DNA of 64,000 nucleotides, from positions 32,001 to 96,000 of IMG/VR virus record IMGVR_UViG_3300020576_005251, one strand, 5' to 3'. Positions 1-62,307 of this stretch are shown here, piece by piece. This DNA comes from a virus. Its lineage: Duplodnaviria; Caudoviricetes. A model generated the notes under the pieces. The model was not told the origin of the DNA. It did no database searches and was given only the letters and a program-made list of their open reading frames with translations. A program made the position numbers and the translations under genes. The first letter of the stretch is position 1. The number at the start of each line of letters is the position of its first letter.

Positions 1-764
1 ACACCGCTGGAGAGCGCGAGACATTACGGCGTATTGCCACCCTCCAGGACTATCAGGCGCTCCCCCGCTCCGAGCTGAAGTACTTCGACGTGCGGACGCT
101 GGGTGCTGAAGGGCTCTCATGGTTCACCGATATGCAACTTGGCGACACGTTGCGCATCTTGGGACAGCCGCCCCACTGGGTACAGGATCAGGTTCCGTAC
201 ACCGACTGGGACTTTGTCATTGATGACGTATCGTATCGCACCACAGGCGGGTCACCAAGCGTTCAAGTCGGAAAGACCATCACGCTGCCTGGGTACACCT
301 TCACACCGGATGACATCGGACGCTGGGTGGAGCTGGTCGGGTTCGCAACCACGCAGTACAACGGGTTGACGCAGATCCTGAGCTACACCGGCAACGTCGC
401 CACCGTGGACAAGAACTTCACCACCAATCAGTCTGGGTCAACGTGGCGATTCCCCTGGGTCCGCGTCCAGGAGGTGTTCTCTGGTCAGGAACCGCGCTAC
501 TTCCCTACGCGGATGAAGAACCTGTCCTGGGCTCGCATTCGCGACGGCCTCACCATCTGCTCTGGCGTGGGCGGCGGCGCTACCTGCCGCGAGACCTCCG
601 GAGCGCTCGTGAGGTCAGTCCGCTACACGGAACTCGCCCCCACACTTGAGGAGGGGCTTGCTCTCCTCGAATATTCGTACGCCGAAGTCCAGCGCCTCCA
701 GCGCCAAGCTGTCCTCAGCGTCGACAGCTTCCTCCCCCTCACCACGCGAACGGTGGGCCCGTGA
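1..764 (+). CDS. Hypothetical protein, probably virion/tail-associated; 5' truncated
   Basis: Frame is open from position 3 to the stop at 764; T/G/beta-rich sequence; overlaps the next gene (GTGA). Confidence 0.6.
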   Translation, partial: TAGERETLRRIATLQDYQALPRSELKYFDVRTLGAEGLSWFTDMQLGDTLRILGQPPHWVQDQVPYTDWDFVIDDVSYRTTGGSPSVQVGKTITLPGYTFTPDDIGRWVELVGFATTQYNGLTQILSYTGNVATVDKNFTTNQSGSTWRFPWVRVQEVFSGQEPRYFPTRMKNLSWARIRDGLTICSGVGGGATCRETSGALVRSVRYTELAPTLEEGLALLEYSYAEVQRLQRQAVLSVDSFLPLTTRTVGP

Positions 765-1141
765 CCGCACCCTGGGTAGAGATTCGTGAAGCGCGTGATC
801 GGGACGGAGACCTCTACCGCGTCACGCTCACGATCGCGCAAGCACGTGAGATCCCCGACTGTCTGTTTGTGCTGGAGCGAGAGACTGACGCGTTCAATCG
901 AGTCGCTTCCGTTCCGGACCTGGAGGTACTGCCGCGCACGAGCGAAGACGCCTTCTCGCAGCACCAGCCGCGCTACCTGAGCGCGACCGCCACCAAGAGC
1001 TTCGAGCGCCCCGGGGCCCTGGTGGAGTTCCTCAGTCACGTCAGGCTGCGTATCACCGACCTGACCCAGGTGTGGGCGGGTGAGGTCGATCTGGATATCC
1101 CCGGGCTGTCCGTGTACACTCTTCCGTCGGAGCCCATGTGA
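761..1141 (+). CDS. Hypothetical protein
   Basis: 126 aa ORF coupled to both neighbours by 4-nt overlaps. Confidence 0.65.
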   Translation: MTAPWVEIREARDRDGDLYRVTLTIAQAREIPDCLFVLERETDAFNRVASVPDLEVLPRTSEDAFSQHQPRYLSATATKSFERPGALVEFLSHVRLRITDLTQVWAGEVDLDIPGLSVYTLPSEPM

Positions 1142-2106
1142 CCACCCCTATTGCGATCCAGACGCGCCGTGTCGCCCCACAAGCTGACGGCAGTACGGCG
1201 TATGAGGTCACGACCCGGGTAACGGAGAAGCACGACCTACCCACGGCGAGCCTCTTCGTCGTGTCGATCACGGACCCGCTGAACCCCAAGTCGGACGCCC
1301 TCGCACGCGTCGCGTCCCCGATCGACTTGCGACGGCTGTCGGGGCTGCTCTATGTCCGAGTTGACGCGGCCTCGATCAACTACATCAACGCGGACCCCTT
1401 CGCCCGCGTCGCCAACGTCGACGACCTCACGGCCTACCAGACCGACCGGGCAGAGGCGGTGAGGCGTGGGCAAGGATTCTACCTCACGGACGCGTTCAGC
1501 GCGCTCTACACGGATCCGGCCACGGCCGACGCCGCCTACCGGCAGATCATCGCTCGCCTCTCTGAGCTGGTGACCAACTGGCGCGCGTACACGGCAGGGT
1601 TCGAGACCAATCCCACGCAGAGCTACCCGCTCCCATCTACGCCGCTCTCCGTGGAGGACCTGCGGCGCGCGGCGTACAGCGATGCAGTCACGATTCGGCA
1701 GCGCGCGGAAGCTGTTCACGAGGCAGCACAGGCCGCGTACGAGCACTGCGTCACCGACTGCGCCCTCGATCGCGCAGTCCACGCGATCTTGCTGAGGGAT
1801 GTGACCTTTCTGGAGCGCGCTCGGGCCCGAGTCGTTGCGATCACCGAGACCGACACCACGAACGCCAAGGACTTCGTGCTGAAGATCGGAGCGTTCGCCT
1901 CTGACTCGGAGAGCTACGAGAACCTTCTCACGCAGAAGCGCACAGATCTGAACACGTACGCCGTACGCGTCCAAGCCTGCCAGGACACCTGCGCACAGTT
2001 GCAAGTGTCTCGCGACAGCGCCCAGGCTGACGTGCGCCGCGCCCTGGCTGATGAACAACGGGCGCTCGCCGACGTGCGTGCCGTCTGTCCCACTTTCGTC
2101 CCCTGA
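1138..2106 (+). CDS. Hypothetical protein with coiled-coil C-terminus
   Basis: 322 aa, coupled start, A/Q/R/E-rich C-terminal half. Confidence 0.7.
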   Translation: MTTPIAIQTRRVAPQADGSTAYEVTTRVTEKHDLPTASLFVVSITDPLNPKSDALARVASPIDLRRLSGLLYVRVDAASINYINADPFARVANVDDLTAYQTDRAEAVRRGQGFYLTDAFSALYTDPATADAAYRQIIARLSELVTNWRAYTAGFETNPTQSYPLPSTPLSVEDLRRAAYSDAVTIRQRAEAVHEAAQAAYEHCVTDCALDRAVHAILLRDVTFLERARARVVAITETDTTNAKDFVLKIGAFASDSESYENLLTQKRTDLNTYAVRVQACQDTCAQLQVSRDSAQADVRRALADEQRALADVRAVCPTFVP

Positions 2107-2113
2107 GGAACCC

Positions 2114-5440: not shown

Positions 5441-6142
5441 TCAGAAGAGGATCCCACCCGGCTCGCGCAGACGGCGCTCAGCCCAGACGGTCACCGCCTC
5501 CTTGACCGCGTCGTTGTTGACCTTGAAGTCAGGCCAGATCTCGGGGAACTGGGCCTTTCCCTCCGCCAGCACCCAGAGGGTGCGCAGCACGTCGGCCTCG
5601 GCACGGTGGGGCGGGAGCGGCGGGCCCTTGCAGACCTCCTCGTAGGTCGTGGAGAGCTTCCAGCCCCGACGCCCGGCCTTCTTCATGATCGCCCGCGAGA
5701 AGTCCATCACGTCCCAGCTGTGGCCCTCCCAGGGGGAGCCCTTGATGTCGTCCCCGTCGTACGGCGTACTGCCGCCCACCCGGGTGACCTTGTGGCGGGC
5801 GAGCTCCTCCCAGATGAACCCGGTGTCGAAGCGGGTGTTGTAGCCGACGATGGGCGCGCGGTGGAGGGTCTTCGCCATCTCGGCCCAGAGCTCGACGGCC
5901 TCCGGGGTGTCGCACTCCGGGGCGTCCTCCCAGTCGGCGTGCTTGGGGCGGTAGCCGTTGACCTCGTACGCCCGCGCCTCCCCGCGCGCGTAGTCTTCGA
6001 GGGACGGCCGGAACCGCACCGTGTGGATCAGGAAGTTGTCCCAGTTGTCATCATCGATGCGCGCGGCGGAGACCTCGATGATGCGGTGACGCTTGGGGTC
6101 GAGGCCAGTGGTCTCAGTGTCGGCTACGCTGATCGTTGTCAT
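5441..6142 (-). CDS. DEDDh 3'-5' exonuclease (DnaQ-like)
   Basis: Exo I DTETTGL, Exo II YNTRFD, Exo III HRAEADV. Confidence 0.9.
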   Translation of the reverse strand: MTTISVADTETTGLDPKRHRIIEVSAARIDDDNWDNFLIHTVRFRPSLEDYARGEARAYEVNGYRPKHADWEDAPECDTPEAVELWAEMAKTLHRAPIVGYNTRFDTGFIWEELARHKVTRVGGSTPYDGDDIKGSPWEGHSWDVMDFSRAIMKKAGRRGWKLSTTYEEVCKGPPLPPHRAEADVLRTLWVLAEGKAQFPEIWPDFKVNNDAVKEAVTVWAERRLREPGGILF

Positions 6143-6164: not shown

Positions 6165-9100
6165 TTACCCGACCGTCAGATCCTGACTCGTCTCTCGGGT
6201 CAGGTCGAACTCTTCGTGGTTGATGAGGTTGTACTCGATATCTTCTTCGTTATAGCCATCCAAAGCCGCCTCGGGTACAGGCGGAGGGAGCGCGGCGATG
6301 TAGTCCTTGGCCTTCTGATATTCGCCGTAACTTGGGCCCAGGGCCACATCCCAGCGGTAGGGGCTCTTGAGCCAGGGGCACTCCTTCGCGACGCGCTTGG
6401 TCCCCTGCTCCAAGAACAGGTCGGGGATCTGGTGCGCGTACTTCTTCGGGACCTGGAAGCCGATCGAGTCGTGCACCGTGAGGAGCACCCGACCGCCCAT
6501 GTCCCGCTCCAAGATCTCAGCGATCCAACACAGCACCATCAGCACGATGTCCGAGTTGGTGCGCTGGATCTTGAAGTTGATGCCCTGACGCTGGAATCGA
6601 GCGAGAAGCCCCTTCGGTATCTTCGACACGTCCATCGGACAGCGACGGCGCCCACCATGGAAGGTCTCGACCAGCCCGAACTGCTGGACCTCCCACTTGG
6701 TGTGCTCCATGTACGTCGGAATGGACGGGAACTTCGAGAACAGAAGGTCTCGAATCTTCTGCGCCAGCTCCAGCGAGATGCCTGCGATCTCCGAGATCTT
6801 GGTGATCCCAGCACCGAACAGCATCCCGAACACGACGCGCTTGATGTTGTCGCGGAGTGCGTCAAGCTGGAGCGCGTAGCGAACCAGGGAGGGCGTTTCC
6901 CAGGTCTTGGGGTCGTCGAAGTTCCCGTTGCCGACGCCCTTCTTCTTGTATGTCTCCCGCGTAAAGAAGTCCTCGTACGACCACGCGTGATCGTCGTCGA
7001 TACCCGCGCGCTCCAGGGCGAGTCGGCGATCCTCCCCCTGAAGACCCGCTGCAACCAGCTGAGGATTGAGCGCCTCGCTGCCGAAGAAGCAGTGCGGATC
7101 CATCCCTCCGATCAGGGCGTTGACCAGCGCCTCGCCACCGTCGAACGCTGCGGCGTACGTACCGAAGATGGTCACCTCGGCGCCCTTCGCGTCCGCGTTG
7201 CCGAAGCACATCGAAGGGTCGTCGGGGATGATCAGCTTCTTGCAGTTGACACCGTCGAAGATCGGAACACCCTGATCGTCCAGGGCCAGACGCCCGCGCG
7301 TATCCCGAAGAGCCCCGAGAAGGCCCTTGGGTACGTTCTGCCAGTTGAAGCCGATCTTGCGAACGCCCGACGATGAGGACAGTCGGTCGGTCGCAGTGCC
7401 TGTCAGGTTGTACCCACCGTGAAGGTGGTTGTCCCCGAACATGGTCGCGAGTTGGTAGGCGTTCCCGAAGACCGAGACGCGCGCCTTCTCCGCCTTCTTG
7501 CGCGAAAGGATAAGGTTGGACAGAGGACACTTGTAGCGACTCACGAGCGCCTGGAGCACGGGGGCGCCGGTCTGGATCTGGTGCGTCGCGGTAAAGGCAA
7601 GCGGTCGGTAGGTGATTCGTCCGTTCTGATAAAGGACCGTGTCGGGGTTGGCCTTGGCGATCTCCTCCGCGTGCTCAGGGTTGGGGTGGATGTAGCCCAC
7701 GCCACCGAAGAAGAGATGGTTGGCGATCTGTCGAGGCGTCAGGTCAAAGGTCTCGCCGCACATCTCAAAGATCTGTGCCCCGGACGCGCCCACCACCATC
7801 TCAAGTTTCTCGGCGCCCCACTTGAGATAGTCGAGGTCGATATTCACGCCCTGGTCTTCGATCTTCGCGAGCTCCACTTGCCGAGGCAGCTTGAACTCGC
7901 GAAGGATCTTGATCTGAGGTGATTGATCGGGACACAGTCGCAACACCCGATACTTGGGTGTCCCGCCCATGCGCTCCTCCAGCGTGATGTCGTCCTCGGT
8001 GCGCCTGCGCGCCAGTTCCAGGGCCGTGTCCTCCTTCTCCATGCGCTCGGCCTGCACCAAGGCGAGTCGGCGCGTCACATCGCAGTCCACGGCGTTATAG
8101 AACAGGAGGTCGGGCAGCGCCGCGCCCTGATAGCCGCCCATCTGCTCAGCCTTGAGCTGCTCAGCTTTCTGGGCAGCTTTCTTGGCTTTCTGGTTGAACT
8201 CCCCACCAGCGTGAGCCTTCAGGAGGATCTGGAGGTCTTGACGATGGAGGTCTTGGAGCGTTTGGCTAGCCAGTAGCTTCTCGATCGTGCTGGGGCGGAA
8301 CTTGGCGCTGCCGATGAGCTTAGCCGCGATGGCGCGCTGGAGGGCTTCGAGCACAGCGGGCGGGAGGTTGAGCACCTCCGTGCCCTTGATCTCGACCGCG
8401 CCCTCCGTCACGCCGTTCAAGGCACCATCCTGGGATTCGAGGGTCGCTTGCAGCTGATCCTCGTAGCCCGAGAGCGCCGGGAAGAAGCGCTTCACCAAGG
8501 GCTTGAGGCCGTACTCCTCCGGCTTCGCCTCCTCGATGATGTGCTCCGCGAGCATCGTGTCCCAACCGGGTCGGCCGATCATGCGCCGTGGCAGCTTGAG
8601 GCCGTGCCACAGCGCTTTCTGGTCGTACTTGCCGTTGTGCCAGATCCACTTCTTGTCCGCCTCAAACGCGCGTTTGAGCTCCCGCTTTACGTACACGGGA
8701 TCGTACGGCGTATCGGGGTGATCCACCGCGATTGCCGTGGCCTTGCCAGTATCCCAGGAGAAGCCTACTGACAGGAGCTTGTAGCCGACCCAGTGTGGGT
8801 GAAGCGTGTTCGTCTCGGTGTCTGACGCGACCGACCAGTCTCGGGGGCTGATACCTCCTGCGCTGTAGTTCAAGACGAGGTCAATGACCTCGGTCACCTC
8901 CTTCTCATCGCGGGGGAAGATGTACCCCCGCATCAGGTCCTCGCGGCTGATGGTTGCGGGGGCAACACCTTTCGCGATCTTGACGGCGCGCTCCACGTCG
9001 GCCAGCAGCGTGTTGTACTTGCCGATGGCCGAGGCGTACGCGCTCAGGCTGCGAGTGGGAATGACGCGAAGCGGGATGCCTTCGTATGTGACCTCGAAGA

Positions 9101-9641
9101 CACGACCGAGGGCCTCCTTCTCCTTACGGACGTGGATGCCGAGCGCGTGGACCACGTCGACCCCGCACGCAAGGATGGTCAAGCCCTCGGGGTAACCGAG
9201 GGCCACTCGGCGCCGATGGATGAACTGAAGATCCCCGTCGATGTTGCTCTTGCACGCGATCGCGACGCGCTTGGGTACCTTCTCCATCGCGCAACGAACG
9301 AGGTACAGCGCCTTGTACGAGATGTTGTGGAACCCACCTTCTCGCACGATCTGCTCAAACGCTTCGATAACGACCTTCGCCCCGTCCTCCTTGAAAGGCT
9401 GGTGATGGTTCGGTACGTTGTACCTGGGCAAGCTGGTCTTCCCGAAGAACTTCCTCGGGGCTTGTGGCGCGGTCGCGAGGATGATCACATCCCCGCTATC
9501 GTCGCCCGTTCCGTACGGCGTATAGTGGGTGTCTTTGAAGGCAGGGCACCCCATGCACCCTGGGCCCGCCTTCTCAGGAAACGTGTTCTTCTGACAGACC
9601 TCGCACTCCGACACAGGGAGCGTGGGGATGGGTTGACCCAT
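6165..9641 (-). CDS. polA: Family A DNA polymerase with N-terminal uracil-DNA-glycosylase-like domain and 3'-5' exonuclease
   Basis: Exonuclease motifs DTET, HNGKYD, WDTML, YNAVD; polymerase motifs TDRLSSS, NWQNVP, DAKGAE (A), RDNIKRVVFG (B), TVHDS (C); Cys-rich family-4 UDG-like N-terminus. Confidence 0.9.
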   Translation of the reverse strand: MGQPIPTLPVSECEVCQKNTFPEKAGPGCMGCPAFKDTHYTPYGTGDDSGDVIILATAPQAPRKFFGKTSLPRYNVPNHHQPFKEDGAKVVIEAFEQIVREGGFHNISYKALYLVRCAMEKVPKRVAIACKSNIDGDLQFIHRRRVALGYPEGLTILACGVDVVHALGIHVRKEKEALGRVFEVTYEGIPLRVIPTRSLSAYASAIGKYNTLLADVERAVKIAKGVAPATISREDLMRGYIFPRDEKEVTEVIDLVLNYSAGGISPRDWSVASDTETNTLHPHWVGYKLLSVGFSWDTGKATAIAVDHPDTPYDPVYVKRELKRAFEADKKWIWHNGKYDQKALWHGLKLPRRMIGRPGWDTMLAEHIIEEAKPEEYGLKPLVKRFFPALSGYEDQLQATLESQDGALNGVTEGAVEIKGTEVLNLPPAVLEALQRAIAAKLIGSAKFRPSTIEKLLASQTLQDLHRQDLQILLKAHAGGEFNQKAKKAAQKAEQLKAEQMGGYQGAALPDLLFYNAVDCDVTRRLALVQAERMEKEDTALELARRRTEDDITLEERMGGTPKYRVLRLCPDQSPQIKILREFKLPRQVELAKIEDQGVNIDLDYLKWGAEKLEMVVGASGAQIFEMCGETFDLTPRQIANHLFFGGVGYIHPNPEHAEEIAKANPDTVLYQNGRITYRPLAFTATHQIQTGAPVLQALVSRYKCPLSNLILSRKKAEKARVSVFGNAYQLATMFGDNHLHGGYNLTGTATDRLSSSSGVRKIGFNWQNVPKGLLGALRDTRGRLALDDQGVPIFDGVNCKKLIIPDDPSMCFGNADAKGAEVTIFGTYAAAFDGGEALVNALIGGMDPHCFFGSEALNPQLVAAGLQGEDRRLALERAGIDDDHAWSYEDFFTRETYKKKGVGNGNFDDPKTWETPSLVRYALQLDALRDNIKRVVFGMLFGAGITKISEIAGISLELAQKIRDLLFSKFPSIPTYMEHTKWEVQQFGLVETFHGGRRRCPMDVSKIPKGLLARFQRQGINFKIQRTNSDIVLMVLCWIAEILERDMGGRVLLTVHDSIGFQVPKKYAHQIPDLFLEQGTKRVAKECPWLKSPYRWDVALGPSYGEYQKAKDYIAALPPPVPEAALDGYNEEDIEYNLINHEEFDLTRETSQDLTVG

Positions 9642-9649
9642 TCATGACC

Positions 9650-12600
9650 TCACACATTCGTCTTGGGGGATGGGGCGGTGGCGGAGGGCGCTTGCGTGTC
9701 CGTCGGTTGCGCAGGCTTCCTCTGCGTGCTCTCTCGAAGAAGAGTCACAACCTCCTTGAAGTGAATCACGGAGATCAGCATGGTGGGTGCAGGGTTTCCG
9801 CACGCCGCCATGAACTCCCGAACTTGCAACTCTGCGTACTCTGCCTGCGGGACTGCGAGCGGATGTTGGTCAAGTAGATGCTTGAGTCGGAATGCCTGCT
9901 CACGAGAGTACTCGGTCCGGTGGAGGATTCCGCCGTTCGACTGGACCGCGATCCAATCGATGACGAGAACCCCCTTCGACTCATCGTAGAGCACCCCGTG
10001 GGAGGTGCTGTTCAGACGAGGGGTATTCTCCCGATCTCCCAGCAGGTTGATCACAGACGTGAAGTGGTTGCCGAGGCGAATAGAGCTCGAACGGATAAGC
10101 GTCTCCATCAGGATCAAGTGCGGAGACGACTGCTGATAAAGCTCCTGCGTCCCGAGGCGAACTCTTGCCGAAGAGATGACCAGCTCTCGCCAGTTACCGC
10201 CCAACATGTCGCACATCGCAGCGGGTCCGTAGAAGTTACGGACAAATCGGGTGTCCACATCGAACGGGAAGAACCCCTTGGTGTTCATCTCACGCACCAC
10301 ATCGGCGTAGTGCTTGCGGTAGAGATCGTGGAACTTGAACAGCCCCACGTTGAGCACCCGCCGCATCTCCGCGAACTCTTCCGGTGTAACGTTCGCGGAG
10401 ATGTGTGTCGTGGGATTGGGGTGTCCCTTCTTGGCAACCGTCTGAATCTCCAGGCGCCGGTTGGCGTCCTGGACGTTCTTGGGGAGGTGGACGGAGGTAG
10501 CGATCGTGTTGAACCAAAGCGTCAAGTACGTCGTCTGCCCGTTGATGACGCGGCTGATCTGCGCGCCACCCTCAAAGCCTGACTGTCGGAACAACTCAAG
10601 CAGGTTGTTGACCTGTCGCGACTTCATCTCGTTGTCCGCCTCGGCGGAAAACTCATCCAGCGCGCAGGTGTTCGAGGCGCCGTTGAAGCCATTGTAGATC
10701 GACGCAGGGCTGTAGTTCGTAAGGTACTGGATAAAGTCCAGGAGCTGGAGGTGCGGAATCTGACCCCCGCAGAACAAGGCCATCAGGCTGGACTTGCCCG
10801 TCTGCGACGGGCCGACAATGTGAAGGTGGACCTTCTCCGGACGGAAGTGGGGCATCGCAAGATCCGCCAAGAAGTATGCGATGAGCAGTGAGTCGCTGTT
10901 GCCGCCCTTGAGGCTCCAAGCAGGCATGATCTTGGTCGCGATGTCCTTGACCACCTGCTTGACGCGCGCGAGCGTCACATTGTTCCCCTCCTCCAGATCT
11001 GCCAAGGAGTTGATCACGGTTCGATGCTTGACCGGGGTCGTGGCGAAGATCCGATTGCCGTCCGTAGGTCCGTCGAGCGTGCGCCACTGCATCGTGCCGT
11101 CTGCGCGGTAATGCCCCGAGTAAACAACCGTCCCCAGGTTCAGGTACTGGATCGTCCCGCCAAACCCATCGTCGCGGCTGTGGGGACCCAGGCCGATGTA
11201 TTCACAGGAGTTCTTTGCCGGGATCCCCTGGTAAAGCGCCTGAAGCGCGATCCCGGTGTAGTCACCCAGTGAGCGCTGAAGCTCCTTGATGACTGACGCC
11301 GTCTTCTCGACTCGTGACTCAACCAACCACAGCGGAATACCAATACGCTGCTGGAAGTAGGTATAGATATCGCCCACCACGTTCGAGAGCGCGGCCAGCG
11401 TACCCGGGTTGTCCCCCGCCATGAACGCCACCGGCTTGCGACTCTCTCGATGGTAGGTAGTCACCTTGGCGCCGCGAGGGGTGTCCTCTCGATAAAGGAA
11501 GTAGAAGTCGTTGCTCAGCGTCTCAACGACCCGCTGGATGAAGCCCGCCTCGTCGTCCTGCCCCTTGATGATGAGGGCCCGGATCTCGGCCGGGGAGAGC
11601 GACAGCACCTGGGCAATCCGGTCCAGGTAGCTGGCCAACTGCGCGGGGTGGCGAACGCACTCACCGAACTTGGCCGCGAGGTCGGTCTTCTCGCGAACCC
11701 CGGAGATCTCCAGCGCGTCAACGCTTGCACGTTGAAACGCCCACTCGTCACAAGTGACGAACACCTTCCGGTAGTTCGCCAGGACGCACTCCCGAAAGTG
11801 CTCAAAGCCCAGGATGCGAACAACGTCATCGGGATCCTTCACGAAGCCGTTACTGGACGCGAGGTTGTCCCATTGATTGAAGACAAAGGCGTTCAGCTGT
11901 GCGCAGCTTGAGAGTCGGTCGCGAAGCCACACCTCGCCGCGCCCACGGCTCGGAGAGGGGTGGTCATGAAGGAAGTAGGCGCTGTCGAAGCCCGCCTGCG
12001 TGAGTGAGTCCGTGTCATTGGCGAGTCCGCACGTACCGATGACCAGCCAGCCCTCGTTGCTGTTTTCGATCAGCGCTTCCGCGATGGTCAGCGTGTCGTT
12101 CTCACCCTCCACCACCAGGAGCTTGAGGCTCTCACGCTCCTTGTAAGAGATGTTGGCGAGGTGGGGTGCGTAAAGCCCAAAGTATCCGTTGGGTTCGTCT
12201 TCCGAGAATCCAGGCAACACCAGGATGTTGCCATCCTTCTGGTTCTCGGTGTCCGGACGCCGCAGGCGAATGCGAGCAGGTGTTGAGATGTCGTGCCCGG
12301 TGATGAACACAACCGCGTGGCTCCACTCCGCACCGGGGTGCTTCGCCAGCTCGCGGACCACGTCCAGGATCTTGTCCCTTCGCTCTGCGGAGTAGCGCGA
12401 AGGGGCGTCGCTCGCATACCCCTGACTGGCGAGTGAGAGGACCCGTTGTTCGCACAGGGAGATCAGGGTCGCAGGGGTCGGCCATACGCCGTACGGCATC
12501 GTATGGATCAGGTCGCGCTTGTGCCCGCGTTGCTCGAAGAGCCAGTCGATCGCGGCCTCGCCAAGCCGTGCGGTGAGGCCCGCTCCTTTGTCCCCTGCGC

Positions 12601-53308: not shown

Positions 53309-53353
53309 ACCACCACGGTCCAATACGCCGTACTCTTCACCTGAGGACCCCAG

Positions 53354-54145: not shown

Positions 54146-55495
54146 ATGCGTCCCCCGAACCGTGGCTCCTCCGACCCCCTCTCTCCCGCTCCCGGCTCCC
54201 CCGGAGTCTCCGTCCCCTTCGACCCCGCGCCTCGCGGGCGCCTGGAGCGGGGCGTGGTCCTCAGCGTCGACGCGAGGCGCCACAGCTATCGTGTAGCACT
54301 CAACAGCGGCAGACAGCTGACCGTGTCTCGGATCCTCCCCTCCCCGGGCGACTCGGGCCTGCTCCCGGCCGGGACGGACGTGGCGGTGACCTTCGACCTG
54401 GGCACGCCTTACATCCTCGGGGTGCTCCCACCGGGAGGCGCCCACGCCGATGGCACCGTGTCCCTCACCGACACCGACGGAAACGGGGGTGACGATCCGG
54501 CCTTGGACCAGCACCACTCGACGAACGGAAGAGACGCCACGACGCCCCGGGACTTGCTCCCCGGAGACCGCGCAATCACGTCCTCGGACGGCGCTTCGGT
54601 GGCGGCTCTCGCGGGAAAGGTCGCGATCCTTTCTGGGGGTCCGCTGGCGAAAGTGAGCGCCCACGGCGACACCGATCACGTCCAGGTCCGCGCGGGATCT
54701 CTGCGCACAGAGACGTGGATGGGCTTCTCCGAGACCGTCAACGAAGGCGGGAAGACCTCGTACCGTTTTCGCGGCGGAACCGATCAGCTCACACAGACGG
54801 GGCCCGGGGAGGAACGCTACACGATCCACCTGGATGCCGGTCACACAGGAGACGTTCTACGCCTGGAGCTGACGAACCGAGAGGGGCAGGCCCTGTTTCG
54901 ATTCCACGTGGATCCCACGGGGCATGTCGAGCTTTTCGCAGCCGGTGGCTTCGCACAAACACACGGGGATCGGAGCGATGCACCGCACGAGAGGGCTCAC
55001 CACGGCAACAGCTCCGAGCGGGTCACGGGGGACGTGGAAAACGTCGCGAATGGCTCTCGAACGGACCGCGTCGGTGAGTTTTATCGGGCAGAGGTGGGAG
55101 ATAATGTCGAGCTGATCGCAGGGGGCGGCATCAACCTCGTGGGCGCGAACAACGCCGCACTCCAGAGCGCGGGCCCCGTCGGGGTTGTGTCGGCGCAACG
55201 CGTCACAGTCTCCGGTCAAGGTGTAACGATCAAGCCCGGACTAGAGACGTTTCTGGTCGACACCTCGATCCCCGATCGAATCAAGTTCGGGGCCAGCGCG
55301 AGTTCGCACGGAGTGAAGTACGAGGAGCTCGCCCAGGTGCTGACGAGCATCCTTCGGGCCCTGAATGAGCTGAGATCCGCCTTCGCGACACACGCACACC
55401 CGGGGGCCCCTCAGAACCCCGCCTACCTCCAATACGCCGTACCGCTCACGGTGGATCTGGCAGGGTGTCGCTCCCTGGTCTTCCAGCTCGCGTGA
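54146..55495 (+). CDS. Baseplate central spike (gp5/gpV-like)
   Basis: OB-fold-like start GVVLSVDARRHSYRV, beta-repeat middle, terminal H-x-H (THAHPG). Confidence 0.65.
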   Translation: MRPPNRGSSDPLSPAPGSPGVSVPFDPAPRGRLERGVVLSVDARRHSYRVALNSGRQLTVSRILPSPGDSGLLPAGTDVAVTFDLGTPYILGVLPPGGAHADGTVSLTDTDGNGGDDPALDQHHSTNGRDATTPRDLLPGDRAITSSDGASVAALAGKVAILSGGPLAKVSAHGDTDHVQVRAGSLRTETWMGFSETVNEGGKTSYRFRGGTDQLTQTGPGEERYTIHLDAGHTGDVLRLELTNREGQALFRFHVDPTGHVELFAAGGFAQTHGDRSDAPHERAHHGNSSERVTGDVENVANGSRTDRVGEFYRAEVGDNVELIAGGGINLVGANNAALQSAGPVGVVSAQRVTVSGQGVTIKPGLETFLVDTSIPDRIKFGASASSHGVKYEELAQVLTSILRALNELRSAFATHAHPGAPQNPAYLQYAVPLTVDLAGCRSLVFQLA

Positions 55496-55543
55496 CACAC
55501 TAGACTACCGACGGGCCTGAGCGACAGGACCCAAGGAGTCATC

Positions 55544-57157
55544 ATGCTCGATCTCACCGTCACCTCATACGGTCCCAACGCGCTGTCCGACCTCAGCGGT
55601 CTCGGCGCGCTCAACGCCGAGGCCGAGTTCCTCGGCGCCAACAACGGCAGCGCCAGCGCGGGCGGCACCACGACCGTGTTCCGCATCTCCAACGCCGACT
55701 GGGATCGGATCCGGCCGCAGCTGCGCAAGCTCGCCGAGATGCGCATCCCCCTCGTCGAGAACGGCGCCACCGTGGCGGGCGTGCAGCGCCCGCTGCTCAC
55801 CTACACGCTCACGCAGTCGATCGGCAACCATCCCCGCATCACGCGCGTGGAAGAGACCGCGCCCGTGAGCCCCTACACCGACGGCGCCCTCGTGGTGCGC
55901 GGCATGAACCTCCTGGGCGGGATCCAGGCCAAGCTCGACCTGTTCACGCAGAGCGTGGCTGTGGCCTCGGGGCCCACCGGCACGCAGCGCTTCCAGAGCG
56001 CCGTGCGCGCGCTGCGATTCACCGCCGTGCCCTTCGGCCCGCGCGGTCGCAAGATCGGGATCCGCATCATGGAGCCCGGGGTCACCAGCGTCTCCGTGGT
56101 CCTGATCGGCGACGAAGAGGTGCGGATCACCGTGACGCCCGGGACGGCGTCGAACACCGCGACGCTGATCGCCGCCCAGATCCTCGGCAGCACCGTCGCC
56201 AGCTACTACGTCACCGCGACGGCCCTCGTGGGCAGCGCGCTGATCGGTCCCACCGCCAGCGTCGGGTCGCCGTCGCCCACGCCGCCGCAGGTGCGTCTCC
56301 CGGAGTTCCTCTACCTCCGTGGCGGTGACGGCGGTGGTGTGGCCGAGCTGCTCGTGCCCGTGGTCGCGGGCGTCGCGACCAACGGCCTCAAGCTCGTCGC
56401 GCAGAAGGCGGGCAACCCGGGGAACAACGTCTCCCTGGTGCTGCGCATGGAGCAGGGCGCCGACGCGGTCACGGTCTCGAACGGGCGCATCACGGTGGAC
56501 CGCACGGGCGCCACCGAGACCCTCGCGAACCTCGTGACCGCGATCAACGGCAACGCGACCGCAGCGGCCCTCGTCCTCGCGAGCGCGCGCGGCACGGGTT
56601 CGCTCGGCGCGAAGGGCCCGCTGTACCTCTATGGTGGTGGCGGCGAAGAGCCGGTGGCGACCGTCGGTGGCGCTGCCGCCACGGTGACGGAGCACACCAA
56701 CACCTCGCTCAAGCTGGCCGTCCCCGCCGCTGCGTACCTCGCGGCCGGTGGGGCCGATCAGATGTCGGCGGTGATCCAGATCCTGCTGGGAGACCGCAAG
56801 ATGAGCGCGCAGGTGATGGTCGGTGCCGCGCGCACCGCGTCGTTCCGCGCCACTGTGCGCGCGCAGTTGGCCGTGATGATCGCCACGCCGGGTGCGGCCA
56901 TCGACGGCGTCATGATGGACGCGGGCGAACGCTTCTGGACCACCTCGCAGGGCGAGGCCACGCAGGACGGCCTCTACGTCTGGAACGGTGCTTCGGTGCC
57001 CGCGACGCGGGCGCCGGAGATGCCGGTGGGGATGGACGTGGCGGGGATGCTGGTCTCGATCAGCGAAGGCACCGAGGCGGGCAAGGTGGCCCAGGTGACC
57101 AACGTGACGGGCGGGGGCATCATCGGAACGCACGGCCTGACCGACGCGTTCGTCTGA
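55544..57157 (+). CDS. Virion structural protein with tail-fibre-like C-terminal motif
   Basis: A/T/G/V-rich repeated beta domains; IDGV...GER...Q...QDGLYVW...TRA resembles a common tail-fibre module. Confidence 0.6.
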   Translation: MLDLTVTSYGPNALSDLSGLGALNAEAEFLGANNGSASAGGTTTVFRISNADWDRIRPQLRKLAEMRIPLVENGATVAGVQRPLLTYTLTQSIGNHPRITRVEETAPVSPYTDGALVVRGMNLLGGIQAKLDLFTQSVAVASGPTGTQRFQSAVRALRFTAVPFGPRGRKIGIRIMEPGVTSVSVVLIGDEEVRITVTPGTASNTATLIAAQILGSTVASYYVTATALVGSALIGPTASVGSPSPTPPQVRLPEFLYLRGGDGGGVAELLVPVVAGVATNGLKLVAQKAGNPGNNVSLVLRMEQGADAVTVSNGRITVDRTGATETLANLVTAINGNATAAALVLASARGTGSLGAKGPLYLYGGGGEEPVATVGGAAATVTEHTNTSLKLAVPAAAYLAAGGADQMSAVIQILLGDRKMSAQVMVGAARTASFRATVRAQLAVMIATPGAAIDGVMMDAGERFWTTSQGEATQDGLYVWNGASVPATRAPEMPVGMDVAGMLVSISEGTEAGKVAQVTNVTGGGIIGTHGLTDAFV

Positions 57158-57637
57158 TCAAGTTCTCGTGCCAGGGCGCCCAGGCTTCGTGCCGGGCGCC
57201 TTGGCCGGGGCCTTCGGCTCGATCTTCGGCTCGATCTTCTCCTCGGGCTTCTCCTCGACCTTCTCCTCGGTCTTCTCCTCGGGCTTCTCCTCGGGCTTCT
57301 CCTCGGGCTTCGACTCGGGCTTCTCCTCGCCCTCGATCTCAGGCAACACCTCCCACCCACTCGCCAGCCGCGTGGACTTGACGGTCGTTCGCGTGGTCAG
57401 AATCTTGACCGCGCGACGAGACGCGTTCGTGAACATCTCCACGGCGAGATCCCGATCTCCCGCCTCGGGATTGTCTTCCAGCGTCACGTGGAACGTCTTC
57501 TCTCCCAGGGGGCCGCGCAGGATGAGCCACGTGCTGCGCTGGCCCGGAGGCAGCTCCAGCACCAGCGTGGTGCCGTTGTGCGGGTTGATGACCGAGAACG
57601 AGATGCCGCTGGTTTCGAGCAGAGTAGATTCTTTCAT
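57158..57637 (-). CDS. Hypothetical protein with EEKP repeat tail
   Basis: 159 aa; 12-bp repeats at about 57210-57330. Confidence 0.6.
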   Translation of the reverse strand: MKESTLLETSGISFSVINPHNGTTLVLELPPGQRSTWLILRGPLGEKTFHVTLEDNPEAGDRDLAVEMFTNASRRAVKILTTRTTVKSTRLASGWEVLPEIEGEEKPESKPEEKPEEKPEEKTEEKVEEKPEEKIEPKIEPKAPAKAPGTKPGRPGTRT

Positions 57638-57675
57638 GTCCCGGAGCCTATCAGATGTACTCTTAGAGCACTAGG

Positions 57676-59349
57676 ATGACGTGGTCCACCGTACTGCCCA
57701 GCCTCCCCTCGGAGGTCCTCTCAGCGGCGCAAGCCCTGACGAGCGCCGCATCCGTAGCCCGTGAGGGGTTGCAAGCCGCGCGCGTCGTCATGCAGGCCCA
57801 AACAGCGCTGGTGAACGAGAGCGTCGGCGGCGCCCTCTCCGCCGCACAGTCTCTGCTCGATGGCGCCGTGAGCGCCTTGGAGGATGCGGTTCAGAGCCTG
57901 CTCGGTGACACGGGGCTCTACGTGCTGATGGTCCCACTGCCCAAGAAGGGGTTGGCCTACTACCTGCCGCAGAGCCTCACGCTCCCCTCCGCCGCGCCCA
58001 CGGGAGCCCTGAATGCGCGCGTAGGGAGCGATGTGAGTCAGCTGCCCTCGTGGCGAAGGGCCTTCGACAGCAGCGCACTCTTCACGGGCGGCAACGCGCA
58101 CTTTCTGAAAACGGTCGCGAACTCGATCACAGACCCGGGGGACGGGTGCCGACCCCAGTTCTCCCGTACGTCGTATTGGGGATACGTCGCCCTGGTCGCG
58201 GGAGCCTCGGACATCAGCGCGGCCATGAGCATCGCCGGGTACGTAGACAGCCTCTTTCGTCGCGAGGGGGGCTCCGAACAGCTCGCCGCTGGTAGCTCGG
58301 ACATGAGCCTGATCGCTACGGGACTGCGCGCCCGTGCCTCTACCCAGGGCGAGCTGGTCGTGGTCGAGTGGAGCCCGCTGGTCAGTCGACCCATTGGAGA
58401 CGACTGGATCTGCGCGCCGTGGAAGTACGCCCTCATCCGCTCGGAGTCTCCCGAAGCGATGACCGCGAGACGTGTCCTGGACCTCTTCTCGACGGTCGAT
58501 CTGCGCGAGGGGATGGCGGGGCGGTTCGGGTCCAAGGTGCTGAAGCTCGCCACGTACAACGGGATGGTGAATCGCTACGTAGACGAGAGCGAAGTCATCA
58601 CCAACCAGACCTACTACTACCACCTCGCCGTTCGGACCCGCGCCGAAAGCCCACAGGGCGAACGCAAAGAGTGGCCCTTCGACCTCGTCTCTTCGGCGGT
58701 CCGCTACCGTAGAACCTCCCGCACAGCGCCCCCGGGGCGGCGCGGAACACCCCCGGATTGGTATCGGAGCCCTAGTGTCTTGAGCCTGATCCCTCCTCTC
58801 GGGCGCCTCTCCGATCAGCTCCTTGAGGCCGTGGGGAGCATGCGATCGAGCAGCACCCAAGTGCTGAGCTACGGACGTGCCGCGCTCGACGCATTGGATC
58901 GGACGATCACACGCCTCGGGCGCATCATCTCAGACCTCGAACAAGTCCTTGGTCAGCTGAATGCGGTCTACTCGACACCATCTGCCAATGTCCACGTCCT
59001 GATTCAACAGGGTCAGGGAGACGCGATGTCCGTTGTGAAGGACCTCGCGACCCAGATGGACGCGCTCGACGACCCGAATCGCCCCGCGTTTGACACGGGT
59101 GACGAGTACGTCTGTGGGATGCTCGCCGTCGCAACTGCACCGAGTGAGGCGGCGCTGGTCCCGCTGATGGCCATGCTACAGGGCCTCTTCAACGGCTCGG
59201 CGCTTGACCCCGTTCTGGCTGGAATCGAGTCCGTACAAGGTGCGTTGGGTGTCGTGCGTACGACCTTGACGGAACCAACGCCTTCGCTCACGTTCAACGA
59301 AGACCTCACCGCTCGCCCTGCCGGTCAGGGCGACTCCACCTGCGAGTAG
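57676..59349 (+). CDS. Putative baseplate/structural protein
   Basis: 557 aa; helical termini and an FN3-like centre (YVDE...TYYYHL). Confidence 0.55.
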   Translation: MTWSTVLPSLPSEVLSAAQALTSAASVAREGLQAARVVMQAQTALVNESVGGALSAAQSLLDGAVSALEDAVQSLLGDTGLYVLMVPLPKKGLAYYLPQSLTLPSAAPTGALNARVGSDVSQLPSWRRAFDSSALFTGGNAHFLKTVANSITDPGDGCRPQFSRTSYWGYVALVAGASDISAAMSIAGYVDSLFRREGGSEQLAAGSSDMSLIATGLRARASTQGELVVVEWSPLVSRPIGDDWICAPWKYALIRSESPEAMTARRVLDLFSTVDLREGMAGRFGSKVLKLATYNGMVNRYVDESEVITNQTYYYHLAVRTRAESPQGERKEWPFDLVSSAVRYRRTSRTAPPGRRGTPPDWYRSPSVLSLIPPLGRLSDQLLEAVGSMRSSSTQVLSYGRAALDALDRTITRLGRIISDLEQVLGQLNAVYSTPSANVHVLIQQGQGDAMSVVKDLATQMDALDDPNRPAFDTGDEYVCGMLAVATAPSEAALVPLMAMLQGLFNGSALDPVLAGIESVQGALGVVRTTLTEPTPSLTFNEDLTARPAGQGDSTCE

Positions 59350-59351
59350 CA

Positions 59352-59729
59352 ATGCCGACCTACGACTACAAGTGCGACCGTGGCCACACCTTCGAGCGCT
59401 TCTGTTCGATCAGCGCGAAGGAGGCCGATCCGACGCCTCCCTGCCCCTGCATCGAAGGCGATGACAAGGCCACCTGCGGTCAGATCAGCCGACAGATCCT
59501 GAGCTCGATGCCAGCGCTCAACAACACCGAGATCTACATCCTGGACTACCCCGGGTCGAAACGACTCAAGGCCGGGTACGTGCACTCACACGTCGATCCC
59601 GGCCCTACGAAGGTGTCGTCAGGCTTCGGTGGTTGCCTCAATCCGTCGACGGCACCTCTTCACCCTCTGGCTGAGAAGGTGTCTCCGGACTGGAAGAATC
59701 GGAAGCGGGCGACAGAGAACCGGCGATAG
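59352..59729 (+). CDS. FmdB-type zinc-ribbon protein
   Basis: MPTYDYKCDRGHTFE...CPC. Confidence 0.72.
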   Translation: MPTYDYKCDRGHTFERFCSISAKEADPTPPCPCIEGDDKATCGQISRQILSSMPALNNTEIYILDYPGSKRLKAGYVHSHVDPGPTKVSSGFGGCLNPSTAPLHPLAEKVSPDWKNRKRATENRR

Positions 59730-60096
59730 GCTGAAGCTCAGGCGTGAAGCCGAGCATGCCGAGGAAGCTGCGCAGGCAGTTGATGCGGCTCTGATCTTCG
59801 ATGGGATCCGCCCCCACAGGCGCGCGACGCGCGATGAACCCCGTCAGGCTGATCCACATGTTGAAGAGCTGCTCCGTCGTCATCCGCGACACATCCCCCG
59901 AGGGCTCCAGCATCGCGACCGAGAGCATGACCTGATCCTCATGCCGCATGGCTCGCACGAGGAGACCGAAGTCCGCGCTCAGTCGCCCCCATCTCTGAGC
60001 CTCCTTCTCCGTGGTCCCATCTTCGAAGTCCTTCGATCCAGCCACGCGGACTCGGATCTCCAGCGGCCTCTTGGTCGTCCAGTATTGGTCATCCAT
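59638..60096 (-). CDS. Hypothetical protein
   Basis: 152 aa; its 3' end overlaps the convergent zinc-ribbon gene. Confidence 0.5.
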   Translation of the reverse strand: MDDQYWTTKRPLEIRVRVAGSKDFEDGTTEKEAQRWGRLSADFGLLVRAMRHEDQVMLSVAMLEPSGDVSRMTTEQLFNMWISLTGFIARRAPVGADPIEDQSRINCLRSFLGMLGFTPELQPIAGSLSPASDSSSPETPSQPEGEEVPSTD

Positions 60097-60122
60097 AGAG
60101 GAAGAGGTTACACTGCTTTGCC

Positions 60123-60968
60123 ATGGACCACTACCTGATTATCAACGGGCGTCGCGTCAACACCCCCTTCGAGTGCCTCAACTGGGAGAACGCCCCCACG
60201 AAGGTCAAGAAGCACACGAAGGTCAATCCACGCACGAGCGCATGCCGCACGATCTGGTGCCACACCGTGCATGGGCGGACGTGTCGCAGGCTGGCGCCCG
60301 GAGGCAAGGCATCCACCCGAGACCTGACCTGGGCGCGCTCCCACTTCAACTCGACCCGTGGTGCTTCCACGGACGGATACATCGACACGGATGGCTCGAT
60401 GGTGTGGTGCAACGACCCGGTCAAGACCTACACCTGGGGCGCGGGGGCGGTGAACCGCTACGGGATGCACATCGAGCTCGTCACGGATGAGAACGGGCAG
60501 ATGTACGAGGACACCCTCAAGACCTGGGGACTCTTCTGCATGATCGCGACGGCCGAGCTCGGGATCCAGCGCCAGACCCCGTGGGATCTCACGCTCAATA
60601 CGCCGTACGCGGGGCGCGTCTTCGACTGCGACCCCGAACGCATGGGCAAGAACACGGTGGGAGTCCTGGGGCACCGGAACGCCTGGACGCACCCCAAGAA
60701 GGCGGACGGCACGAAGGATCTGAGCCGCTACACGCCGCAGCGCGGCTTCGGCGACCCCAACGACTTCCCCTTCACGTGGCTCGTCGAGCACCACGCCTTC
60801 GAGAAGCTGGTCTTCCACGGCGGTGACAGCCAAAGTGAGCCGCCCGTGCGGGCCCTCTGGCGCGCACGCCAGAGGGCCCTCGGGCTGACGGATGACGGGG
60901 TGCCCCTGAAGGACACCGTGGCGGCGCTCAAGCGCGAAGGGAGGGCGAACGGGTTGTGGGTGGAGTGA
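60123..60968 (+). CDS. Endolysin: N-acetylmuramoyl-L-alanine amidase (Amidase_2-like) with peptidoglycan-binding tail
   Basis: CHTV, YIDTDGS, WGAGAVN...HIEL, VLGHRN, GDP; C-terminal RQRALGLTDDGV. Confidence 0.75.
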   Translation: MDHYLIINGRRVNTPFECLNWENAPTKVKKHTKVNPRTSACRTIWCHTVHGRTCRRLAPGGKASTRDLTWARSHFNSTRGASTDGYIDTDGSMVWCNDPVKTYTWGAGAVNRYGMHIELVTDENGQMYEDTLKTWGLFCMIATAELGIQRQTPWDLTLNTPYAGRVFDCDPERMGKNTVGVLGHRNAWTHPKKADGTKDLSRYTPQRGFGDPNDFPFTWLVEHHAFEKLVFHGGDSQSEPPVRALWRARQRALGLTDDGVPLKDTVAALKREGRANGLWVE

Positions 60969-61325
60969 TCAGCGAATCTGCTTCGCGTTCATGATGACCG
61001 CGTTGCCCACGATCACCGAGTAGCTTGCGCCCTCGCGCATGGCCCAGTTCGTGGCCTTCTCGTTGGGCGGGAGCTTCCTGAGCAGCCCCTCCTCGTTCAC
61101 CACCATGAGCGTCCCACCGTCGGCGGAGCGGAGGAGCTCGATGTCGCCGCCGACGTACTCCCGAAGCGCCTCCAGCGTGAAGTGGTTGCCGTTGGTCGGG
61201 AGAACCTGCTCCGAGGTGCCGTCGGTGCGGTAGAGCGTCGCCGGGGTGATGGTGGGGGCGGGCTTGGCGGCGCGCGGCTTGGTCGTCTTCTTGGTCGTCG
61301 GCTTGGTCGTCTTCTTGGTCGTCAT
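60969..61325 (-). CDS. DUF3846-like protein
   Basis: LEALREYVGGDIE...VNEEG...LPPNEKAT...IVGNAV; start at MTTKK (61325) after GGCAGAG. Confidence 0.7.
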   Translation of the reverse strand: MTTKKTTKPTTKKTTKPRAAKPAPTITPATLYRTDGTSEQVLPTNGNHFTLEALREYVGGDIELLRSADGGTLMVVNEEGLLRKLPPNEKATNWAMREGASYSVIVGNAVIMNAKQIR

Positions 61326-61957
61326 GTCTCTGCCTTGGAGTAGTTGGTGAGTCCCTGGATGATCGCAGGGGTGAGGACGTGCTTGATGGTCTGGAGCGCG
61401 GCGACTTCGTCCGCCGCGATCCTCTTGGCGGTCTCGTTCTTCGCCATGAGCGCCGCCGCCCTGGAAGCGACGACGGAGGAGAGCGTGCGTGCCAGTGCGT
61501 CGCCGGAGTTCATGCCACGTGCGACGACGACGGAGGCCGCGTGGCTGCACGCGAGTGCCGCAGCCTGGGCGGCGTGGTTCGTTCGATAGTAGCGCGCGGC
61601 GTCTTGGCAATAACGTTGGGCGTCGGAGATCGCGTTCACTGACGTACCGCCTGCCGTCCAGACGGCAATCGCGTACAACGCGTTTCGAGGGTGATGCTCT
61701 TCAGCCGGGACGTTCTCCAGGGCCGTGTTCGCGCAGGCGATCGCCGCCCGTACGATCACCTCGTGGGAGAGGAGACGATGGCGATACATCTCCCTCACGA
61801 TGTGCATGAACCGCTCCTGGGTATTGCATTCCTCCAGGGCGCGCTCCCAGTCAGTGCCGAAGGGGAGCGCCCACGCCACGAGTTCCGCCAGGACCCTGGG
61901 GCTGAACCCAGGGCGTGGCCCCAGGCGCTTGAGGAGCGTGTGGAGCGGGGGTCTCAC
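61322..61957 (-). CDS. Ala-rich helical hypothetical protein (Imm5-like pattern)
   Basis: AIACANTAL...HPRNALYAIAVW followed by Ala-rich helices; GTGA coupling. Confidence 0.5.
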   Translation of the reverse strand: MRPPLHTLLKRLGPRPGFSPRVLAELVAWALPFGTDWERALEECNTQERFMHIVREMYRHRLLSHEVIVRAAIACANTALENVPAEEHHPRNALYAIAVWTAGGTSVNAISDAQRYCQDAARYYRTNHAAQAAALACSHAASVVVARGMNSGDALARTLSSVVASRAAALMAKNETAKRIAADEVAALQTIKHVLTPAIIQGLTNYSKAET

Positions 61958-62307
61958 GGGAGCCTCCGTGTGACGGTGTCGATGACCCACTTGCGGTCGT
62001 GTGCCGCCAGCGAGTCGAGCAGCTTGGTCACGCTCTGGAGAACCTCCTCATGCTGCGGAGTGCGGACCAGACCCTCGGCACGCGCGGCGCCGAAGAGCGC
62101 GTCCCAGGCGGGGTATGCACCACGCGTGTACGACTTTGACCATACGGCGTACGGGAGCGAGAGGTAGTCGTGACTCTTGTCCCCCACGCGCCGAAGCCCA
62201 CTGCCTCCGTCGCTGTTCCGGCAGAAGTACCAGTCTTCGTTGTCATGGACTGCGAGCAGCACGCACTGGTCGCAGTCGTGCTTGAATCGAGGCTTGAGTT
62301 TCGTCAT
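61954..62307 (-). CDS. Hypothetical protein
   Basis: PRFKHDCDQC...DWYFC; GGAAAGATAGG upstream. Confidence 0.6.
   Translation of the reverse strand: MTKLKPRFKHDCDQCVLLAVHDNEDWYFCRNSDGGSGLRRVGDKSHDYLSLPYAVWSKSYTRGAYPAWDALFGAARAEGLVRTPQHEEVLQSVTKLLDSLAAHDRKWVIDTVTRRLP

Follow-up and report, generated by a model that had tools for sequence, protein, structure and literature searches.

Why does a phage genome repeat one short palindrome, TACGSCGTA (S being G or C), about every 2 kb and mostly within its genes, and which protein might read it? The question was raised by a 64-kb stretch of DNA, here termed the window, which comprises bases 32001-96000 of the single IMG/VR virus record IMGVR_UViG_3300020576_005251. 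The genome in this record (172,885 bp, 64.4% GC) is designated G000, and other G and L codes denote related genomes and contigs; positions are those of the window unless given as genome positions. The palindrome was found 36 times in the window, compared with a mean of 0.09 copies and a maximum of 1 in dinucleotide-preserving shuffles, and 92 times in the genome, of which it is the commonest 9-mer. An initial annotation of the window had listed 36 exact copies, variants with A or T as the center base at 27411, 28967 and 58167, and a CAA (5′) or TTG (3′) flank at 16 of the 36 sites. Every one of these coordinates was confirmed and the same flank count was obtained, but the ideal 15-mer derived from these flanks, CAATACGSCGTATTG, never occurs in its full form in the window. 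The feature is real, strongly selected and family-wide. On balance it probably, if only just so, constitutes a lattice of parS-like sites, spread over the whole genome, at which an orphan sliding clamp of the ParB type encoded by the phage would be loaded.

The coding context of the copies was examined using simple gene calls based on the GC content of third codon positions (GC3), which are crude and gave 208 genes covering 89% of the genome. Seventy-three of the 92 copies lay inside genes, i.e., approximately 80% of the sites are within coding sequence. Shuffling of synonymous codons left a mean of 23 copies, 19 of which were the unshuffled noncoding ones, so that approximately 4 coding copies were expected versus the 73 observed. 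The coding copies were distributed over all three frames (33, 11 and 29 copies) and both gene strands (38 and 35), as the annotation had noted for the window, and the center base of the motif showed no bias relative to the sense strand. As many as 14% of the GTA codons of the genome sit within the motif. The spacing of the half-sites was strict, with 101 copies of TACG-N1-CGTA versus 1 to 4 for spacers of 0, 2, 3 or 4, and the flanks carried the symmetry on to RTACGSCGTAY and beyond. In both G000 and a relative with different arms, G066, the sites form a dyad of 13 to 16 bp with fixed half-site spacing, as do parS, NBS and OB-type sites. Selection on DNA and not on protein, as proposed in the annotation, is well supported because of the enrichment over codon-preserving shuffles, the use of all frames and both strands and the strict dyad, together with the positional conservation and the rarity in candidate hosts described below. 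Only two intergenic copies had been claimed; our gene calls place four or five copies in noncoding DNA or at gene junctions (17889, 17941, 22592, 53324 and perhaps 33701).

The sites are spaced at a mean of one per ∼1.9 kb and more evenly than by chance. The coefficient of variation (CV) of the gaps was 0.577 genome-wide, below all of 20,000 random placements (mean, 0.98; minimum, 0.656; P<5e-5), and a gamma fit to the gaps gave a shape of 3.6. Only 5 gaps were shorter than 500 bp compared with 21 expected, and the largest gap between S-center sites, as distinct from the A/T-center variants, was 5,166 bp (55433-60599) compared with 9,573 bp expected. The annotation had judged the spacing to be even from a list of 17 gaps between 24218 and 55433, and a recount gave an identical list. 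Nine variants of the form TACGWCGTA were present in the genome, three of them in the window (27411-27419, 28967-28975 and, in the middle of the largest gap, 58167-58175). Their mean distance from S-center sites was 1,206 bp, whereas that of random points was 630 bp (P = 0.0013), and a variant was present near the middle in five of the six largest gaps. The A/T-center variants behave as lattice members because they lie far from S-center sites and in mid-gap. The largest gap left after their inclusion (genome 132880-137894) coincides with a tandem array of paralogous genes of ∼105 to 116 amino acids (aa) at genome 133700-137300, outside the window, which matches this site-free gap exactly; the array fits recently expanded DNA not yet provided with sites.

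Relatives were obtained from IMG/VR contigs by using the large terminase, TerL (64 to 93% identity, n = 4), and a TerL profile then added ten at 42 to 52%. The first four carried the 9-mer 22, 16, 37 and 71 times, versus 0 for a backwards control, and TACGSCGTA was the top 9-mer in each. Gaps were under-dispersed in these genomes, G001 to G004, as in G000 (CV, 0.49 to 0.64), and spacing was also even in G069 and G070. At orthologous positions, 17 of 19 S-center sites were kept in G001, and 10 of 44 and 10 of 36 (∼25%) were kept in G003 and G004, genomes averaging ∼49% amino-acid identity. With A/T-center sites included, conservation ranged from 19 of 21 positions in G001 down to 0 to 1 of 39 in G066. 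Conserved sites in the window include those at 1194-1202 (kept in G001), 8704-8712 (an orthologous PolA position kept in G001, G002, G003, G070 and G073), 12485-12493 (G001, G003 and G068), 26046-26054 (G001 to G004) and 30063-30071 (G001, G003 and G004) and, all kept in G003 and G004, 36999-37007, 48076-48084 and 51739-51747. Single sites are under purifying selection yet replaceable, since conservation of orthologous positions falls off while density and spacing persist; a check for such turnover at a maintained density had been proposed in the initial annotation.

Other lineages with a lattice share the strict dyad but with arms of their own, the three types being GTACGSCGTAC, CTTTAC-N3-GTAAAG and TTCAC-N3-GTGAA. 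The form (C)TTTAC-GSC-GTAAA(G) was found in G068 to G073, L113 and L118 and sparsely in G075, in which a dyad search detected 6 copies of TTTAC-N3-GTAAA versus 0.11 expected. The third type is the class of G066 and G067; the G066 motif was present in 39 copies versus 0.17 expected, 39 of 40 occurrences had the N3 spacer, and the gaps were again even (CV, 0.54; P below 2e-4). The location of the information varies by lineage, being in the center in some (G-S-C fixed) and in the arms in others (center free). Conversion of the motif in place between classes was considered for G000 versus G066 and was almost absent; turnover, not in-place conversion, explains the change of class because only 0 to 1 of the 39 orthologous positions are shared. 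The G066-class sequence, TTTCAC-GSC-GTGAAA, consists of the half-sites of canonical parS, TGTTTCAC followed by GTGAAACA (PMC7022226), set 3 bp further apart. Salmonella phage Arash and Vibrio phage D181, distant cultured phages related via the RNA polymerase only, had no ParB-like match and no iterated palindrome. The top over-represented words of Arash, TGGTATAAGTAA (10 to 16 copies) and CAAACGTTGTAAC (10 copies), are probably its own promoter or regulatory motifs, unrelated to the lattice.

The distribution of the motif in potential hosts was then relevant to whether the sites might belong to the host. A contig with 93% TerL identity, CAZMXB010000099.1 (L054), is a 16.7-kb near-identical phage fragment binned in an uncultured Rhodoferax metagenome-assembled genome (MAG), and a second contig of this MAG, C228, had 3 sites in 5.5 kb. 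Rhodoferax as host is a weak lead, coming only from metagenomic binning, and may be a host clue or a binning artifact. The MAG contained 34 copies of the motif, 9 of them on the phage contig, versus 59 of the backwards control, and 60 further genomes of the candidate host family contained 0 to 25 copies each (431 in ∼236 Mb). The motif was ∼290-fold sparser in this family than in the phage and mostly below the backwards control, absence from the host having been proposed as a check in the annotation; host-wide bias, Chi-like and uptake-like readings are unsupported for the candidate host group because the motif is rare there. The phage might nevertheless exploit or mimic a host factor that binds the sites (host ParB, a transcription factor or a recognition system of the Chi or uptake kind), given that the G066-class arms are host-type parS half-sites and that phages do carry sites for host regulators, e.g., CtrA (PMC9437464). 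We regard this as improbable: Chi and uptake sequences are asymmetric and plentiful in the hosts to which they belong, whereas the lattice motif is palindromic and scarce in these 61 genomes; the G066-class spacer is 3 bp versus none in canonical parS; and the arms differ among phage lineages of similar GC content, each with its own ParB-like gene.

Several gene families that could account for an iterated motif were sought. DNA methyltransferases of the C5, N4/N6 and D12 types (PF00145, PF01555 and PF02086) were not found in five genomes, two of them complete, nor was a Tet/JBP dioxygenase (PF12851) found in the five; a ParA-like ATPase (PF13614) gave no match in G000, G003 or G004, and a tyrosine integrase was looked for and not found. 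Methylase-driven, Tet/JBP-driven, ParA-partition and temperate readings were dropped, none of these genes having been found, and the ParB is considered an orphan, and the phage probably lytic, because of the lack of matches to a ParA-like ATPase and a tyrosine integrase. The 5mYOX thymine dioxygenase pathway was set aside likewise: no PF12851 match was obtained, and the ParBs that activate phage thymine dioxygenases are without a DNA-binding domain (PMC13229309), whereas the protein described below has a helix-turn-helix (HTH).

The sites could also have no reader and have arisen neutrally from a mutational or repair drive (HIP1-like, or methylase-linked and VSP-like) or from codon or composition bias. 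Iterated palindromes of the HIP1 type do exist without proven function (PMC5861425), and one-mismatch neighbors of the motif are somewhat enriched too. A drive, however, predicts random and not even spacing, and the spacing statistics largely refute it; moreover, the signal is lost in codon-preserving shuffles, the A/T-center variants fill gaps, and the arms change by lineage while dyad geometry and spacing persist. With no methyltransferase in the two complete genomes and the motif rare in the candidate host family, whose identity as host is uncertain, a HIP1-like or methylase-linked motif was rejected and an origin without any reader appears very remote. HIP1 of cyanobacteria, like the DNA uptake sequences (DUS) and uptake signal sequences (USS), is similar to the lattice in being a short motif hugely over-represented in coding DNA (PMC5861425, PMC1939737). 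These motifs belong to the cell's own chromosome, whereas the lattice motif is restricted to the phage and scarce in candidate hosts, and we could find no cognate methylase for it.

The candidate reader, on domain, sequence and fold matches, is an orphan ParB/Noc/KorB-like gene at 16324-17508 on the minus strand, the 394-aa product of which is termed P0001. The HTH of P0001 matched Pfam PF17762 (HTH_ParB) at 8.6e-7, above the cutoff, and by PHROG it is a ParB-like partition protein. Its best sequence matches among solved structures were Noc and ParB, with GRCRTRA aligning to the box II sequence GERRWRA. Residues G135, R138, R140 and A141 of box II (pattern G-x-x-R-x-R-A) and E170, N171 and R174 of box III (E-N-x-x-R) are invariant in orthologues, and the more divergent orthologues read GRRRxRA. 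The top Foldseek matches of an AlphaFold model (mean predicted local distance difference test score [pLDDT], 74) were Noc-NBS, ParB-CTPgS and KorB (TMt 0.72), and the DNA-binding domains of Noc and ParB were matched also; the N terminus is modeled as a Lys-rich, low-confidence tail. A homodimer model scored 0.69 versus 0.00 for the best control, with the predicted interface at residues 293-377 in the C-terminal domain, at least 55% shared contacts among runs and a partner pLDDT of at least 74. Of 30 proteins solved as pairs, 20 attained this mark, as did 1 of 23 solved as single chains; since solved ParB dimers exist, the pass may show likeness to them more than proof. The gene has the third-highest GC3 of the genome, a hint of high expression. 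Wherever this slot, which has a PD-(D/E)XK nuclease block on one side and an SNF2 helicase on the other, could be examined in a lattice-bearing genome or contig, it contained an orthologue. The annotation had suggested a dimeric phage protein acting chromosome-wide by a ParB- or Noc-like logic, and this fits the syntenic ParB-like protein, the parS half-sites, the homodimer model and the operon site described next.

The ParB-like gene forms an operon with a small open reading frame (ORF), headed by a control region at 17870-17965 on the minus strand. Two sites within this region, 17889-17897 and 17941-17949, flank both sides of a promoter-like CTGGTAGAAG element (17916-17925) and do not form a simple hairpin (z, −1.7). 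A site ∼380 to 392 nt upstream of the ParB-like start was kept in 9 of 10 genomes, and this operon-head site reads cTTTACGSCGTA, including in genomes with a different general flank preference. The promoter-like element, (T)CTGGTAGAAG(A/G), was present in 7 exact copies, all on the minus strand: the one in the control region, another at 22580-22587, and copies at genome 95490, 124416, 139546, 145853 and 168886. The copies are mostly intergenic and 20 to 160 nt upstream of minus-strand gene starts, and it is a candidate promoter, judged by sequence and position, for one of the RNA polymerases acting on the phage. Two lattice sites abut the element; the intergenic site at 22592-22600, upstream of the RNA polymerase gene, is 4 nt from the GGTAGAAG promoter-like element at 22580-22587.

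These observations can be combined in a model in which TACG(S)CGTA would be the core of a parS-like loading site for P0001, a dimer of which would read the two arms across the fixed spacer. We infer that P0001 binds the sites and, like ParB, Noc and KorB, closes into a nucleotide-dependent clamp that would slide for 1 to 2 kb and then be released. Approximately 100 sites at ∼1.9 kb could thereby keep the whole phage chromosome loaded with clamps, while the motif-poor host chromosome would stay bare. If coverage is what is selected, sites that are too close would be redundant and decay and overlong gaps would fill, which would therefore give both even spacing and turnover. The two sites around the promoter-like element of the ParB-like operon may confer autoregulation. 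Candidate purposes of such a coat are the marking or compaction of phage DNA as "self"; its organization for the phage RNA polymerase, replication or packaging; and long-range control of transcription of the KorB kind. A bolder version, which we consider speculative and rather unlikely, is that ParB-type clamps wrap the replicating chromosome of a lytic phage and bridge it into a membraneless condensate, a protein-only "self" compartment. Such a condensate would keep viral DNA apart from the host nucleoid and from defenses that target DNA and would concentrate the phage RNA polymerase and packaging machinery, with selection tuning site spacing to the sliding range of the clamp.

A number of findings weigh against the assignment of the lattice to a P0001 clamp. 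One box II Arg is replaced by Cys in G000 and G001 (GRCRTRA), and the Pfam ParB_N match of P0001 falls below threshold; nucleotide use is uncertain in these two genomes because of both features. In the most distant relative, G074, a fragment that is 29% complete, the slot is occupied by a canonical ParB (ParB_N, 1.6e-14; HTH_ParB, 1.2e-16), but neither a lattice nor a parS-like site was seen in 51 kb. The presence of a ParB is thus not sufficient for a lattice, which may have arisen along with the divergence of this ParB lineage. The association of the ParB-like gene with the lattice tracks phylogeny and may reflect a single evolutionary event, and the divergent subfamily members that a profile search recovered belonged without exception to the same phage family, with no independent lineage among them. 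Most of the conserved genes are unannotated and could hide another reader, and the host assignment comes from metagenomic binning alone.

Another explanation is that the lattice is functional but is read by a different phage protein encoded among the unannotated conserved genes (a sequence-specific nuclease or nickase, a topoisomerase, a base-modifying enzyme, or a factor for replication, priming or packaging), the ParB-like protein then having few sites only or another role. The absence of Pfam or PHROG matches for most conserved genes, the confounding of the ParB association with phylogeny and the case of G074 all favor it, and the ∼2-kb scale resembles the length of Okazaki fragments. Conversely, the strict-spacer dyad and the parS-type arms of G066 point to a ParB-type HTH dimer, the most conserved site heads the ParB-like operon, and no methyltransferase or Tet/JBP enzyme was found. 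A nuclease cutting both strands of the palindrome would fragment the genome, and known phage nick sites, being asymmetric and restricted to a single strand, speak against a nickase. Another phage reader is a minority view, unlikely but to be taken seriously.

The proposed P0001 clamp was compared with systems that use related sites. KorB, a CTPase clamp of the ParB family, does not strictly depend on a cluster of centromere sites, and its own sites are dispersed over the RK2 (IncP-1) replicon, which has a dozen of these OB sites. OB, TTTAGCSGCTAAA, is an odd palindrome with a central S, the same layout as a lattice site. The RK2 sites are mostly at promoters, and KorB has KorA, TrbA and IncC as partners; in contrast, the phage has ∼100 sites, ∼80% of them in coding sequence and evenly spaced, on a probably lytic 173-kb replicon with no ParA-like gene detected. 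As a CTP-dependent clamp, KorB can slide as far as 1.5 kb away from the operator, and it autoregulates (PMC11790492), and the match of this range to the ∼1.9-kb scale of the lattice was counted in favor of a clamp. Noc, the nucleoid occlusion factor of Bacillus, is an orphan ParB paralogue with many palindromic NBS sites over the chromosome, spreads from them to mark the whole DNA molecule and provides the best sequence and fold matches of P0001. The NBS sites number ∼70 in 4 Mb, are unevenly spaced and are missing from the terminus. Noc tethers DNA to the membrane by an N-terminal amphipathic helix, unlike P0001 with its Lys-rich tail.

Chromosomal ParB resembles P0001 in the HTH_ParB domain, in the box II and III residues of the putative N-terminal ParB domain and in the predicted C-terminal dimerization, and the arms of the G066 class are chromosomal parS half-sites (PMC7022226). 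parS sites are few, clustered near the origin and without a central spacer, and they have a ParA partner, whereas the phage has a genome-wide lattice, a 1- to 3-bp center and no ParA; a ParABS partition system was rejected on these grounds, there being no PF13614 match in the three genomes searched. The stoperators of cluster A mycobacteriophages are tens of short sites, one per 1.5 to 2 kb and many in genes, bound by a phage protein that acts genome-wide. This protein is the immunity repressor of a temperate phage, and its sites lack symmetry and follow the direction of transcription, whereas the lattice sites are palindromic without strand or center bias and no tyrosine integrase was found, and a system of the stoperator and immunity-repressor kind was rejected. 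The lattice is best explained as working like KorB-OB or Noc-NBS while differing in scale, placement, evenness and its lytic-type phage replicon.

Centromeres, nucleoid occlusion and plasmid gene silencing are the known settings of ParB-family clamps, with a few to some tens of sites. If the clamp interpretation is correct, an even lattice of ∼100 sites in coding sequence with drifting arms would be a new use of the ParB-type switch, and the selected spacing would be an in vivo estimate of the sliding range of a clamp. The lineage-specific arms are a ready-made series for the evolution of ParB-DNA specificity, and the fraction of GTA codons occupied by the motif illustrates how strongly a DNA-level signal can override codon choice. 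The motif is also a simple bioinformatic marker for a widespread phage family: DNA of this phage was detected in wastewater, sludge and freshwater metagenomes from 13 studies. A megablast of 20 kb of the genome gave no match in the phage collection searched; searches of the literature with the motif strings retrieved only primers and unrelated sequences, and a keyword search found no earlier description of such a phage lattice.

A role of the motif in RNA or single-stranded DNA, as a terminator, a pause element for the phage RNA polymerase or a hairpin signal, is suggested by three of the four close pairs of sites, which are outside the window. These three (genome 139590-139622, 154418-154447 and 158670-158706), with a palindrome in each arm, are perfect 16-bp inverted repeats followed by minus-strand U-rich tracts, with a ΔG of −33 to −40 kcal/mol and z scores of −6 to −8. 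They look like intrinsic terminators built around the motif, which, being within the stem, is therefore present twice per hairpin. In this respect they resemble the uptake-sequence terminators of Neisseria and Haemophilus; USS and DUS form inverted pairs in terminators and show rather even spacing (PMC5861425, PMC1939737). However, ∼95% of the copies are single and cannot fold alone (a 4-bp stem with a 1-nt loop), there is no coding-strand bias, and all frames are used, while the hairpin stems are more simply places where a double-stranded DNA site costs nothing. We therefore give very little credence to a function in RNA or single-stranded DNA and retain the double-stranded loading site as the favored explanation.

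The remaining sites of the window, all exact matches, are at 25-33 (TACGGCGTA), 1957-1965, 2756-2764, 5760-5768, 9514-9522, 14769-14777, 19488-19496, 20104-20112, 21809-21817, 23360-23368, 24218-24226, 28008-28016, 31796-31804, 33701-33709 (at a gene junction), 34839-34847, 39177-39185, 40375-40383, 43119-43127, 43752-43760, 45511-45519, 49649-49657, 53324-53332 (intergenic), 55433-55441, 60599-60607 and 62143-62151.

The neighbor of the ParB-like gene, g034 (14241-15464, minus strand), encodes 407 aa, has a GC3 of 0.95 and is conserved alongside the ParB-like gene in all relatives, G074 and G075 among them. It had no Pfam or PHROG match and was rejected as a ParA, not being ParA-like; its nearest Atlas clusters are viral and Pam3_Gp34-like (score, 0.95; family on 13 to 45% of members), a lead only. 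In some relatives the gene immediately downstream of the ParB-like one is on the opposite strand and has a Sigma70_r2 domain (L113:11135-12049 and L117:7479-8327); none was noticed at that place in G000. In-frame tandem repeats occur in G075, including an (EA)n linker inside its ParB-like gene, and G068 has a long tandem repeat of the GCTACG type.

The gene set of the phage includes the large terminase, a family A DNA polymerase, two SNF2 helicases, a UvrD helicase, a PD-(D/E)XK nuclease, ThyX and a dCMP deaminase. A multisubunit RNA polymerase is also encoded, with beta and beta′ fused and interrupted by a LAGLIDADG element. A single ORF of 2,428 aa (22611-29897) contains the fused beta-like and beta′-like domains together with an intein-like LAGLIDADG homing-endonuclease segment and an AAA_18 kinase-like insert, and a separate gene at 31890-33689 encodes the C-terminal part of beta′.

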